Positions 37,396 through 53,146 of a DNA stretch of 64,000 nt are shown here, piece by piece. The notes below the pieces were generated by a model. That model was not told where the DNA came from and ran no database searches. It saw nothing but the letters and a program-made list of their open reading frames with translations. Each line of letters begins with the position of its first letter. Position 1 is the first letter of the stretch. Both the position numbers and the translations under genes were made by a program. Source of the stretch: Candidatus Atabeyarchaeum deiterrae (lineage in GTDB: Archaea > Asgardarchaeota > Atabeyarchaeia > Atabeyarchaeales > Atabeyarchaeaceae); the NCBI GenBank assembly GCA_037310415.1, contig CP147780.1, forward strand, positions 1,728,001-1,792,000, in the 5' to 3' direction.

Positions 37396-38283
37396 TCATT
37401 TAAGGTGGTTTCTCTGTTCTAGAAGCCCTATTCTTTCTGTCGCCCTTTCCGTATACCCTCGGTTGATATCGATGCCTATGAAGTGTCTGCCTGTCTTCAT
37501 GGCCGCCACACATGTGGCCCCTACACCGCAGAACGGATCCAACACTATTTCTCCCTCAAATGTGTAAAGCTGTATGCACCTGTAGGGCAGTTCTACTGGG
37601 AATGGGGCAGGATGGCCTACCTTTTCAGCTGATTCAGGTTGGAAGACCCATACACTTTTCGTGAATTCAAGGAATTCGTCCTTCGATATTGTTGCTTTCT
37701 TTTCTTTGCGGTCTCTCGAGAATCTCCCCTTCGAAAAAACCAGAATATACTCGTGTGTGTCTCTGAGAGTTGGGTTGGTGGCCGAAAGCCAGCTTCCCCA
37801 TGCAGTGGAGGCGCCAGCGCTTGCGCCTTTGTTCCATATTATCTCTCCTCTCATCAAGAAGCCAATGTCGTGCATCACGTCAATGATAAACTTGTGGTGT
37901 GGAATGTAAGGCTTCCTTCCAACGTTGGCGATGTTGACGCAAGTCCTTCCTCCATTAACCAACACTCTGTGCGTCTCGGAGAAAACGTCCTTAAGCAGCG
38001 ATAGGTACTCGGTCAAGTTCAGATCTTTGTCATATTCTTTGCCTACATTATAGGGCGGAGAAGTAACCATTAGATGAACACAGCTGTCGGGGATGCTATT
38101 CATTCTTCTTGAGTCTTGGCATAGAATCTTGTCAAGAACATCAGCTGGAGCGGGATTCTCGACCTCTTCTCCAGTTTCATCAATTTCGAGACCAGCGTAT
38201 AGTTTGCTGCTGTAGAAAGGGGTGGAATCGTGACCTTCGCGTTTTGACACACCAAACTTGCTTGTCCTAGTTCTCCCGCCCAT
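37396..38283 (-). CDS. Site-specific DNA methyltransferase, beta class (N4-C/N6-A)
   Basis: TSPPY precedes DPFCGVG; HPAPFP. Confidence 0.93.
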   Translation of the reverse strand: MGGRTRTSKFGVSKREGHDSTPFYSSKLYAGLEIDETGEEVENPAPADVLDKILCQDSRRMNSIPDSCVHLMVTSPPYNVGKEYDKDLNLTEYLSLLKDVFSETHRVLVNGGRTCVNIANVGRKPYIPHHKFIIDVMHDIGFLMRGEIIWNKGASAGASTAWGSWLSATNPTLRDTHEYILVFSKGRFSRDRKEKKATISKDEFLEFTKSVWVFQPESAEKVGHPAPFPVELPYRCIQLYTFEGEIVLDPFCGVGATCVAAMKTGRHFIGIDINRGYTERATERIGLLEQRNHLK

Positions 38284-38347: not shown

Positions 38348-39250
38348 CTATGCTTGCGCTCTGAGCTTCTGTTTTGTGAGTTCATTATCATCTATGCGCT
38401 GGCTGCACACTGGGCAGCGATCCTTCACGTGCAACCATTCAAGCAGGTGAACTTTATGTGCGATATTCCCGCAGTGAGGGCATCTCAGAATCGGATCTCC
38501 CAGTTTGAAATTCAAGTTGCAAACAATGCATTTCCTGTCAGTCACACTTATCTTCTCTTCTTTAGCAGGAACTGCCGCGCGTGCACGCTTCCCTGCCTTT
38601 CTCTCCCTGATTACTATGACGGGTTGTTCAACTCGCGCAGGCTGGCGGCCTGCGGTAGAGCGCTGTGCTCCCTTTGGAAACTGTTCTCTTGGCTGACTTA
38701 ACTCGAGTTGCTCTTCCTGCAAGCTTGCTCCACAATTCATGCAGAAGAGAGCGCCAGGGAATTGCACCTCTGTGCCGCAGTAGGGACAAGCCGCGAGTCT
38801 TTCCGGACGCATACGGGAAGCGATATTTCGAGCTGTATCAGAAGCGGCTCGTGTCTCACTGACAGAGACTTCAGGAATATTCTCGTTCTCTATCATTGAG
38901 GCAAGCTGAGGGTTGAGTCTGACCGCTTCATCATAGCACTTGGCAGCGTCCTCATGCCTGCCAAGCTTGCTCAATGCAATGCCTTTCTGGAACCATGCTT
39001 TCTCATACCTCGGATCTATTCCGAGCGCTTGGTCAAACACTTTCAACGCTGCTTCAAACCTGTTAAGACTGATTAGAGAGACACCTTTGTTGTAGTAGGC
39101 AACGGTGTACTGGGGGTCCTCTTCTATCGCCCTGTTGTAGCTTTCTACTGCTTCATTATAGGCGCCGATGTTGTCAAAGTTGATGCCTTCATAGAACCAC
39201 TTCACAGCATTAGATCTAGGCACCGAGTCGGTCCTCCTCACCAGCATCAT
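38348..39250 (-). CDS. TPR-repeat / Zn-ribbon / RING-variant protein (putative E3 ligase)
   Basis: Three TPRs (AYYNKG, AWFQKG), CPYCG...FCMNCG, C-terminal CIVC-x12-CPHC-x4-HKVH-LLEW..-CPVC. Confidence 0.85.
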   Translation of the reverse strand: MMLVRRTDSVPRSNAVKWFYEGINFDNIGAYNEAVESYNRAIEEDPQYTVAYYNKGVSLISLNRFEAALKVFDQALGIDPRYEKAWFQKGIALSKLGRHEDAAKCYDEAVRLNPQLASMIENENIPEVSVSETRAASDTARNIASRMRPERLAACPYCGTEVQFPGALFCMNCGASLQEEQLELSQPREQFPKGAQRSTAGRQPARVEQPVIVIRERKAGKRARAAVPAKEEKISVTDRKCIVCNLNFKLGDPILRCPHCGNIAHKVHLLEWLHVKDRCPVCSQRIDDNELTKQKLRAQA

Positions 39251-50131: not shown

Positions 50132-50902
50132 CTACGTCTCTTCTCTGCCATTTTTCCTGCCTCTTGACTGCTTCGTTGCTCTCGACAGTTGTTCGCTGAG
50201 CTCCTTCTCATCTAGGTGCTTGCTGCAGGCTGGACATTGGTTGTGCACATGCAGATACTCGAGTAAGTGGTCTCTGTGAGCTGGACTTCCACAATGCGAA
50301 CACCACGCCACGGCATCACTCAGTCTCAAGTCCTGATTGCATACCATGCAGATGCCTGTGCTCTCGGCAACTCGAGGCAGTCGCGCCTCCTGTGAAGTTT
50401 GAACGTTTGTAGCGCGAGGGGAGACGTCTGCGGCTGCAGTCGCTAGGTTTGCCTCACAACGTGGGCAGAACTTGGCACCATCTATGATTATAGTTGAACC
50501 ACAGTTGCCGCATACCGGCCTTAGCCGAATGACTTCCAGCTTGATCCGATAAATGCCAATGGAGACGAGAAGCATAGCGACAATAAATCCAAATATCATG
50601 GCTAGCGCGGGAATCAGCGGGAGTTCGCTACCTTTCATTACCCATATCTTGTCGGGAGGAACTCCAGCAAATTCAGCAACAACATAGATCACGGGAATGT
50701 CGACAAGTATACTGAGGATTCCGAGTATGATGACTATTCTATTTCGTCTATGGACCTTAAGTGTGGCACCGCAACCAGAGCACAGAAACTCCCTCCCTCG
50801 CAACCGTGAGAAGAATATCCTATTATCTGTTTGACAATTCGGGTACCTAACCCCAAGCGGTCTCGTAGTGGCTGGCATGCCTTCCTTTCTCCCAAATGTC
50901 AT
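50132..50902 (-). CDS. Zn-ribbon / 2TM / Zn-ribbon / RING-variant membrane protein, copy 3
   Basis: YPNC..CSGC, two TMs, CGNC..FCPRC, CMVC-x12-CSHC-x4-HRDH-x10-CPAC. Confidence 0.85.
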   Translation of the reverse strand: MTFGRKEGMPATTRPLGVRYPNCQTDNRIFFSRLRGREFLCSGCGATLKVHRRNRIVIILGILSILVDIPVIYVVAEFAGVPPDKIWVMKGSELPLIPALAMIFGFIVAMLLVSIGIYRIKLEVIRLRPVCGNCGSTIIIDGAKFCPRCEANLATAAADVSPRATNVQTSQEARLPRVAESTGICMVCNQDLRLSDAVAWCSHCGSPAHRDHLLEYLHVHNQCPACSKHLDEKELSEQLSRATKQSRGRKNGREET

Positions 50903-50998
50903 TCCAGCAGATTACTCAACCGATTCTATCTCCGTTAATTCTATTCGAGGCTATTGCCCGTCGGATACTTGAACAGGCGAGCCTTGCGGTTAAGCGCT

Positions 50999-51718
50999 TC
51001 ATAGTGTGCTTACGCGCTTCCATTTCTTTTTAGTTGTTTGTCGCTTATTCGAGTGTAACGGTGGGTCCTTGATTTCGGGCTCCTCAAGGTGTTTGCCGCA
51101 TGCAGGACAGCTCTTTCTCAGGTGAACCCATTCAATCAAGTGGACCTTGTGAAAGGTGTTTCCGCAGTGTGGACAGCATGCGAGAACCTCGCTCTCATTC
51201 ATTTCCAAGTCGCAGACAAGGCACGTTCCAACTGGTTTGGGTTTCGGAAGATGATGTGTCGGTCTCTGGGTCTCAATCTGCTGCTCGGTAATTGTGATTC
51301 TTTCCCAGGCTGGGTGTTCCATGCTCGCTCCACAGTTTGGACAGAACTCAGCGTCCTCCAGGACCATGACTGCGCTACAGTATTTGCAGGTGGGTCGCAG
51401 CCGAACGACCTCTATCTTCTTGACACGGATAATAATAGATACTACAATGAGGAAATAGGGGAGGATTCCCAGGCCGATCAGAAACATGAGTTCCCCACTG
51501 TCAGCTTTTCCTCCATAAGTGCCCAAGTACATGATGACAAGCAACACGACAACAATTGTGATGATTGGGAATCCAGCGATTCCGAGACCCATTGATGCTC
51601 TGAAACGAGCAGTTGTCTTGAGTACAGCCGGACAGTTGGGGCAATGAACCTCCCCAGATGCTTGACGTTTCTCGTTAGTCCAGAAATTGACTTCGTTCCT
51701 GCAGTTTGGGCACTTCAT
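50999..51718 (-). CDS. Zn-ribbon / 2TM / Zn-ribbon / RING-variant membrane protein, copy 2
   Basis: CPNC..CPNC, two TMs, CKYC..FCPNC, CLVC-x12-CPHC-x4-HKVH-LIEW..-CPAC. Confidence 0.88.
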   Translation of the reverse strand: MKCPNCRNEVNFWTNEKRQASGEVHCPNCPAVLKTTARFRASMGLGIAGFPIITIVVVLLVIMYLGTYGGKADSGELMFLIGLGILPYFLIVVSIIIRVKKIEVVRLRPTCKYCSAVMVLEDAEFCPNCGASMEHPAWERITITEQQIETQRPTHHLPKPKPVGTCLVCDLEMNESEVLACCPHCGNTFHKVHLIEWVHLRKSCPACGKHLEEPEIKDPPLHSNKRQTTKKKWKRVSTL

Positions 51719-51829
51719 TCTCTGCTTCCCCTCTACCCTGCATCTCTTCTGATGCTCAAACTAGGATTCATCTGCTCAAGTATCAGTCTCATACATTGAT
51801 TCATGATGTAGCTGACTTACAGCCTTCAT

Positions 51830-52549
51830 CTATTTTATTCTTCTTTGCATGCGCTTTTCAGATAACTGTTCCGTTAACTCCTTCTCGTCCAACTCCTTGC
51901 CACAAGATGGACACTCCTCGTGCACGTGCAAATACTCGAGTAAATGAGTTTTGTGGGCAGAACTCCCACAGTGCGGACACCATGCAGCAATTTCATTCGC
52001 CATCAGTTCCTCCTTACATACAGCGCAGATCCCGATGGTTTTGGTTCTAGGTGCCTTACTTTGTACTGCCACAGTTCCAGCTTGTCGAGAGCTAGCACGC
52101 TTTTTCCCAGATATATCGTCCAATTCTGCTCCACACTTCGGGCAGAAGTGTGCGCTCTCCATCTTGATTGTTGAACCACATCTAGCACAGATCGATGCAA
52201 GTCGAACCACCTGCAACTTCGCAGTGAACTGGGCAAATACTCCTAGAGAAATGCCGAGGATTACTCCACTCCAAAAGACTACGCCTGGGATCGGGTTTCC
52301 TTGCAACAGAAATATGGATGCAGTAGAATCAGTAAGATGTCCTCCAAGTGCGAGACCGACCAGAGCCGAAGCAACGGCTCCCAACACAATGGTGAGAATT
52401 GAGAACAGGAATAGTAGTCCCTTACTTCTTGGAAATCTGAGCACAGCAGCACACTTCGGACACCTTAGTTCTTGTCCCAGATCTTCGCGCCCTTTGAGCG
52501 TGATCCTTTCATCGCAATTTGGGCATTTCAGCGCCAATTCATATCTCAT
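51830..52549 (-). CDS. Zn-ribbon / 2TM / Zn-ribbon / RING-variant membrane protein, copy 1
   Basis: CPNC..CPKC, two TMs, CARC..FCPKC, CAVC-x12-CPHC-x4-HKTH-x10-CPSC. Confidence 0.88.
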   Translation of the reverse strand: MRYELALKCPNCDERITLKGREDLGQELRCPKCAAVLRFPRSKGLLFLFSILTIVLGAVASALVGLALGGHLTDSTASIFLLQGNPIPGVVFWSGVILGISLGVFAQFTAKLQVVRLASICARCGSTIKMESAHFCPKCGAELDDISGKKRASSRQAGTVAVQSKAPRTKTIGICAVCKEELMANEIAAWCPHCGSSAHKTHLLEYLHVHEECPSCGKELDEKELTEQLSEKRMQRRIK

Positions 52550-53146
52550 TTCACTCTCTTCCACGAGCGATTGTGATCCTCACTTTGGAGTTTCGGCACC
52601 TTGCTTCTTCTGATTTTCATGCCTTGGATTCCCGGTACCTTCTGATCCCCCATCATTTTTCCTTCCATTCCCTTTTTCCACTCATAACATGAGAAGCCAT
52701 CATGACAAGGATCGTCGGGCAGAAGAACCAGAATTATGTAGAGCCTTGTGCAATATTGTCAACTTTCTGCATCTTTTCTCTTTCTACTTGCAACGGCCCC
52801 ATCACCCTGACTCAAAGGTCCCACTTCCTTCGATTCGCTCTCAACTGTAAGAACAGTGGATCAGTGACCTCTCACCCATAGTCCAATATATAAGGTAATC
52901 GCTTACAGTCAGTGAAACCAACTTTCTTGAGTGGAGTTGCATTAAACGGGACTTCCATCGGTTGAGGCCTGATCGAGAATCTCAGCAAATTCTACCTGCC
53001 AATTATTCTCAAATTGCTCGGATTAGTTTGTAATGGATAGGCAGCATCGGATGCCATTTGTTGAGAATTACGCAACGCCACCCGCAGAAAGCCCAACTGT
53101 TCGCACATCTTCTTAAGTATCTTGTCAAGAATCTCCCTAGTATAAG

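Follow-up and report, generated by a model that had tools for sequence, protein, structure and literature searches.

The archaeon Candidatus Atabeyarchaeum deiterrae couples a classical peptide-binding module to a RING finger of the kind found in archaeal ubiquitin operons, and does so within one soluble chain of 300 residues. The gene lies on the minus strand of a 64,000-nucleotide stretch of the genome (contig CP147780.1, positions 1,728,001 to 1,792,000; the whole of this stretch is hereafter the window). Its product, here called the TPR-RING protein, is read as a soluble E3 ubiquitin ligase of RING type, a member of the archaeal srfp / Prok-RING_1 family with the TPR as a recognition or docking module, and to this reading we give a probability of roughly 0.55. 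If it holds, ubiquitin-charged E2 would be recruited by the C-terminal RING, the E2 in question being the only canonical one in the genome and having its gene, like those of ubiquitin and E1, in a ubiquitin-ESCRT cluster. The three-repeat TPR, tethered by some 60 flexible residues, would capture a substrate or a partner protein through a groove other than an EEVD carboxylate clamp. The gene, its domains and three related genes are arranged in the window as follows.

38348..39250, minus strand: whole gene, 300 aa plus stop, with three TPR repeats, Zn ribbon, linker, RING and acidic helix (open frame)
38903..39208, minus strand: three TPR repeats, residues 15-48, 49-82 and 83-116, then a capping helix (Pfam TPR_1, AlphaFold)
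38720..38788, minus strand: Zn ribbon, residues 155-177, with C155, C158, C170 and C173 (Zn_Ribbon_1)
38537..38719, minus strand: disordered, mildly basic linker, residues 178-238, with 13 K+R against 9 D+E (pLDDT, composition)
38405..38530, minus strand: RING finger, residues 241-282 (Prok-RING_1, PDB matches by sequence and fold)
38351..38404, minus strand: C-terminal acidic helix, residues 283-300, motif (I/L)-D-(D/E)-x-E-L (family alignment, helix in both models)
50132..52564, minus strand: three tandem paralogues of 256, 239 and 244 aa, ribbon-linker-RING behind hydrophobic segments (BLASTP, RING spacing)

The initial annotation of this gene, made from the letters alone, had described three TPRs, a CxxC..FCxxC ribbon and a RING of the type carried by the tandem trio, all without transmembrane segments. 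That anatomy is borne out by Pfam, ligand spacing and BLASTP for the domains, and by both a crude hydrophobicity window and the AlphaFold model for the lack of any TM segment in the 300 residues. TPR_1 (PF00515) matches in three stretches over residues about 15-116 (E 8.5e-25, 85.9 bits against a cut-off of 27.8), and Zn_Ribbon_1 recognises residues 155-177 with 26.2 bits (cut-off 25), the pattern of the ribbon being C-x2-C-x11-(F)C-x2-C. The identity of this ribbon as an NZF/RanBP2-type ubiquitin-binding finger was considered and dropped on account of its spacing (C-x2-C-x11-C-x2-C) and its lack of a T-F signature; zf-RanBP does not appear among the protein's 25 best Pfam matches. At the C-terminus the RING passes Prok-RING_1 (PF14446) marginally, with 29.4 bits against a cut-off of 29.1, and scores 22.7 bits with zf-RING_2 (PF13639), under the cut-off of 27.3.

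An AlphaFold2 model of the whole protein, built with 150 relatives, resembles beads on a string: the TPR is modelled at pLDDT >90, the ribbon at about 85, and the RING with its C-terminal helix at about 95, and the roughly 55-60 residues of linker between ribbon and RING fall to 40-48. A relative (P0155) that is 88% identical across all 300 residues has a RING 100% identical to that of the window protein, mostly conservative changes in the TPR, and its greatest variability in the linker. It shares the N-terminal MMLVRRTD as well, about nine residues in all, a point in favour of starting the gene at the ATG at 39250. A promoter and terminator scan gave results at shuffle level, the model used being that of sigma-70, which does not apply to archaea.

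The predicted zinc ligands of the RING (C241, C244, C257, C260, H265, H268, C279 and C282) have cross-brace spacing, C-x2-C-x12-C-x2-C-x4-H-x2-H-x10-C-x2-C over residues 241-282, and in 150 relatives five of the cysteines are invariant, with the sixth and both histidines nearly so. Counted with the ribbon, these ligands would bring each chain to a predicted three Zn, two of them in the RING. Searched against the PDB by sequence with phmmer, the domain finds RNF165/ARK2C first (E 2.6e-6), then Arkadia, RNF126 and RNF24 down to 2.6e-4. Folded alone it has a core pLDDT of about 90, and every one of the best 50 PDB matches of this RING-only model in Foldseek is an E3 domain of the RING or U-box kind, with RNF126, RNF165, EL5, RNF24, RNF38 and RNF13 among the nearest; the last five of these superpose on the model with an rmsd of 1.1-2.4 A over 45-51 columns. 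To judge by these comparisons, the domain is homologous to eukaryotic RING-H2 E3s but a distinct variant. Common to both are the cross-brace ligand order, an Ile/Val after the first cysteine, the Trp and the C-P-x-C; setting them apart are a C-P-H-C knuckle (C-x2-C) at ligands 3/4 where RING-H2 has C-x-H, and a His rather than a Cys as ligand 6, so that the pattern reads C4H2C2 instead of C3H2C3. The TPR-RING protein further differs in having no Arg/Lys directly after the last Cys, and its family carries an acidic C-terminal helix of its own.

Archaeal RINGs of this kind include enzymes of established activity. For the operon RING (srfp) of Caldiarchaeum subterraneum, E3 activity has been demonstrated and shown to depend on I30, W58 and R69, and the study also notes the extra 'C3B' cysteine at ligand 3/4 that is seen here (PMC5654768). 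A Helarchaeial operon RING ubiquitylates UEV-Vps23 (bioRxiv 10.1101/2023.07.25.550441). Srfp and the TPR-RING protein are alike in the Cys pair at ligands 3/4, the His pair at 5/6, and the E2-contact Ile/Val and Trp, and differ in that srfp, at about 80-100 aa and encoded within an operon, is bare, whereas the 300-aa protein adds a TPR, a Zn ribbon and a long linker. Candidates for E2 contact in the latter are I242/V243, W272 and P280, the first two of which align with the corresponding residues of RNF165 and are equivalent to I30 and W58 of Cs-srfp. It is because the RING type and these first two contact residues are shared with a proven ligase that the TPR-RING protein is read as an E3.

The third residue is a different matter, for where Cs-srfp has its linchpin R69, directly after the last Cys, the TPR-RING protein has Ser283, with Arg285 at +3. 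An Arg/Lys in that position is absent from all 12 paralogues in the genome, the operon RING included. Either the linchpin may be shifted (to Arg285 here, and to a Lys at +2 in the tandem trio), or the activation of these RINGs may differ from the canonical one. The acidic helix that follows the RING, with its motif (I/L)-D-(D/E)-x-E-L, is present in all of the paralogues, and in the alignment its Glu is nearly invariant.

The rest of a ubiquitylation pathway is encoded elsewhere in the genome. A cluster near 347 kb holds Vps4, EAP30/ESCRT-II, Vps28, UEV-Vps23, JAB, an 86-aa RING, ubiquitin, E2 and E1. The 86-aa operon RING (L009:8656-8916) matches an HMM of the window's RINGs at E 4e-25 and aligns at 54% identity with the TPR-RING protein, whose gene lies 1.4 Mb from the operon. 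Besides a UEV protein there is one canonical E2 in the genome (L009:9422-9895), in which both the HPN motif and the catalytic Cys are intact; mature ubiquitin, ending at Gly-Gly, is encoded at L009:9098-9334. Prediction of a complex between this E2 and the RING (stretch 222-291 of the alignment) gave 0.42, 0.09 and 0.01 in its runs, values that straddle the mark of 0.32 and tip the balance on binding in neither direction. The E1 (L009:9900-10949:+; ThiF, E 1.9e-70) has in addition a weak ubiquitin-like match at residues 276-333 (PF00240, 21.5 bits, below the cut-off).

Around the TPR-RING gene itself lie MBL-fold hydrolases, a nitroreductase, an N4/N6 DNA methylase, a ZIP transporter and a flavodiiron protein, and these immediate neighbours yield no functional link, with no ESCRT or proteasome genes nearby. 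On the same strand, separated from the TPR-RING gene by 64 bp on its downstream side, is the methylase gene (37396-38283, minus strand; PF01555, E 8.3e-49), for which no restriction enzyme partner was noticed among the ORFs listed nearby; on the upstream side an MBL-fold gene follows at a distance of 47 bp.

The ribbon, linker and RING form a cassette that recurs both within the window and beyond it. When the whole protein is compared by BLASTP, the region from ribbon through RING aligns with the members of the trio at 50132-52564 with E values of 6e-22, 7e-20 and 4e-20, the RING spacing is identical in all three genes, and each product has one or two hydrophobic segments by the crude hydrophobicity scan. 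The common cassette proposed in the initial annotation is confirmed by these alignments (BLASTP E 4e-20 to 6e-22), and a phylogeny, from which the RING of the TPR-RING protein might have emerged as unrelated to the trio's, places all of them in one family. With an HMM built from the four RINGs of the window, 12 ORFs of the 2.76-Mb genome score better than E 1e-7, four in the window and eight elsewhere, the operon RING among the eight, and their N-terminal partners differ. In some, a TM segment comes after a CarboxypepD_reg domain or after an FG-GAP propeller; several more have one or two TM segments, and there are also a ribbon protein of 242 aa that is soluble and a HEAT/ARM protein of 669 aa. 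A Zn ribbon lies upstream of the RING in nine of the 12, and on the evidence of these sequences its association with RINGs of this family is conserved.

The suggestion that one cassette sits on varied N-terminal modules therefore extends from the two kinds first noticed to 2TM hairpins, an FG-GAP propeller with TM, CarboxypepD_reg with TM, HEAT/ARM repeats and the bare srfp form, and it holds in public data as well. A modular repertoire of E3s is supported to that extent, but the further claim that the cassette 'is being shuffled' overstates how recent the process is: in the RING tree the paralogues of this genome are interspersed with sequences from other organisms, and they must accordingly be old rather than recently shuffled.

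The family is expanded relative to the single E2, with 12 ORFs here and 28 recovered from a complete genome of the sister genus (G003), where dense RING arrays occur at 2,154-2,160 kb, 2,169-2,181 kb and 2,025-2,032 kb. The same genome encodes a 364-aa ORF (L121:544-1638:+, in G003:C1:1326300-1328200) with two tandem RINGs, at residues 224-277 and 316-364, and two RING patterns are also present in several database relatives. On a metagenome contig (Ga0315309_1000459, L102:3428-5503:+) two family RING ORFs, one of 246 and one of 149 aa, are found less than 2 kb apart, another tandem arrangement like that of the window's trio.

Fusion of the cassette to a TPR is a far narrower phenomenon than the cassette itself. 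An exhaustive phmmer search with residues 140-300 over 1.84 billion cluster representatives returned 1,041 relatives at E <= 1e-3 and 178 at <= 1e-10, ranging from 79 to 1,317 aa and with the RING nearly always C-terminal. Among the best 150, DZR was found in 96, Prok-RING_1 in 95 (E <= 1e-4), FG-GAP_3 in eight, CarboxypepD_reg in six and TPR in four. These four, which make up three clusters at 50% identity, are the window protein, its near-twin P0003, P0011 (240 aa, with three TPRs, ribbon and RING, 38% identical to the window protein) and P0136 (367 aa, with four TPRs, a middle domain and a RING, and no ribbon); the TPR carriers are metagenome-derived and labelled simply 'TPR repeat protein'. 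In the RING tree, which rests on 55 columns and in which most forks are open, the window protein and P0003 pair at 99, and P0011 joins them in the thinned tree with an SH-aLRT of 86. P0136 falls near the operon-type RINGs, and the AU test does not reject a single clade of all four (p 0.44).

Other searches turned up no further example. TPR is absent from all 36 RING ORFs recovered from two sister-genus genomes, which indicates that the TPR-RING gene does not serve a core function; a phylum-wide search with the whole protein, taking the best five candidates per genome, gave no TPR+RING match, and four TPR(+ribbon) frames that were followed up carry no RING. A profile search of genome contigs was dominated by generic TPR proteins, with no match past residue 208, and a metagenome scan with the RING found four weak RING-only loci. 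From these sequences the TPR-ribbon-RING fusion appears rare but conserved where present. In the literature, a 2026 preprint mentions RING-type E3 ligases among alpha-solenoid clusters that Asgard archaea have in common with eukaryotes (PMC13734099), and RING finger domains are listed, without detail, among the ESPs of Atabeyarchaeia; no description of a TPR-ribbon-RING protein was found in the literature searched. Known already are both this family of RINGs and E3s of the RING type in archaea.

The ligase reading is favoured by the persistence of the layout of three TPRs, ribbon and RING in P0011 at only 38% identity, and is weakened by the marginal Prok-RING_1 score, the Ser at the linchpin, the uninformative neighbours and the absence from the sister genus. 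The protein might, in another reading, be a zinc-finger scaffold or regulator that is no ligase at all, whose RING-like treble clef and ribbon bind another protein, nucleic acid or ubiquitin and whose TPR acts as an assembly platform. In its favour, the canonical linchpin is missing from every paralogue, twelve RING proteins face a single E2, Pfam scores are marginal, and Zn ribbons are generic binding modules. Against such a role stands the operon RING, which is of the same type and likewise without the linchpin, and whose Caldiarchaeum and Helarchaeial relatives are active E3s; for that reason the missing linchpin is no argument against activity. Moreover, the E2-contact Ile/Val, Trp and Pro are all kept, and the best 50 structural neighbours are E3 domains without exception. 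A role outside ubiquitin ligation we regard, on this balance, as unlikely.

The protein might instead be an active E3 whose TPR, in place of choosing substrates, docks onto a machine (ESCRT/Vps4, the proteasome or Cdc48) or mediates self-association or auto-inhibition. TPR modules are often scaffolds, the family of the operon RING is associated with ESCRT genes, and the first repeat (residues 14-43, window 39122-39211, minus strand) has an MIT-like match (E 6.3e-5). MIT domains bind ESCRT-III. The match, however, reaches 23.4 bits against a cut-off of 30, and probably reflects no more specific a similarity than that of helical hairpins in general, and the gene neighbourhood lacks any link to ESCRT or the proteasome. 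We hold a docking or self-regulating TPR to be rather improbable, and return to the reading of a soluble ligase whose TPR would serve recognition.

What the TPR would recognise bears on a further element of the initial annotation, namely a CHIP-like architecture. CHIP/STUB1 consists of a 3-TPR module, a coiled coil and a U-box. A quality-control ligase after this model would grip the acidic tail of Hsp70 or the thermosome with its TPR and ubiquitylate chaperone-bound clients through its RING. The order of domains, a three-repeat TPR at the N-terminus and then a C-terminal domain that recruits E2 (a prediction in the present case), does match that of CHIP, an analogy of layout only. Potential partners also exist: one Hsp70 and two thermosome subunits are encoded in the genome, the latter by adjacent genes (G000:C1:961511-964899, minus strand) whose products end in Gly/Met-rich tails, ...GGEYD and ...GGEED, with the acidic termini -EYD and -EED.

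The specifics of CHIP are nonetheless missing. Its ligase domain is a U-box preceded by a dimerising helical hairpin, whereas in the TPR-RING protein a Zn ribbon and then a disordered linker lead up to a zinc RING. Its 25 best Pfam matches include no U-box family, and its AlphaFold model contains no coiled-coil or helical-hairpin dimeriser between TPR and RING. The best 50 PDB matches of the whole-protein model do not include CHIP, and the model resembles nothing more specific than generic TPR modules of three repeats (designed consensus TPRs, OGT, SGT and MamA). The two-carboxylate clamp of chaperone-binding TPRs, K-N-N-K-R on helices A1, A2 and A3 (Hop K8, N12, N43, K73 and R77; PP5 K32, N36, N67, K97 and R101), is represented at two of its five positions. 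In the phmmer registers to Hop (7kw7_E) and PP5 (1a17_A), and given an alignment free of gaps up to residue 88, these positions are F19, I23, N54, K84 and Q88, so that F, I and Q replace K, N and R; P0011, compared by eye, keeps none of the five. Nor does any six-frame ORF of 50 aa or more in the genome have an EEVD-like C-terminus, the single Hsp70 ending in ...GDEDKNK. With a zinc RING, no dimeriser, a clamp reduced to two residues of five and no EEVD tails, the resemblance to CHIP is one of layout only, and a chaperone-directed role is very improbable. Among eukaryotic proteins, TTC3 and rapsyn join a TPR to a C-terminal RING-H2 in one chain, with many more repeats and with other domains. 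Since their ligase domain is a true zinc RING they are closer analogues in layout than CHIP, a likeness that does not imply common descent of the fusion.

The comparison corrects the attractive but unsupported idea of a CHIP-like link between chaperones and ubiquitylation in archaea. In its place we offer, tentatively and as a view that falls somewhat short of an even chance, the TPR-RING protein as the soluble and readily purified member of a modular E3 network that predates eukaryotes, in which one ubiquitin, one E1 and one E2 serve a dozen RINGs with different recognition modules; these modules would be TPR, HEAT/ARM, membrane hairpins and receptor-like ectodomains. To our knowledge, every reconstitution of archaeal ubiquitylation has used bare operon RINGs, which are uninformative on substrate choice. 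A soluble TPR-RING protein of 300 aa together with a single E2 makes up a minimal testable system for adaptor-type E3 specificity as it may have existed before eukaryotes, and if the TPR does dictate the choice of substrate, then the diversification of substrate-specific E3s by domain fusion arose in archaea before eukaryotes.
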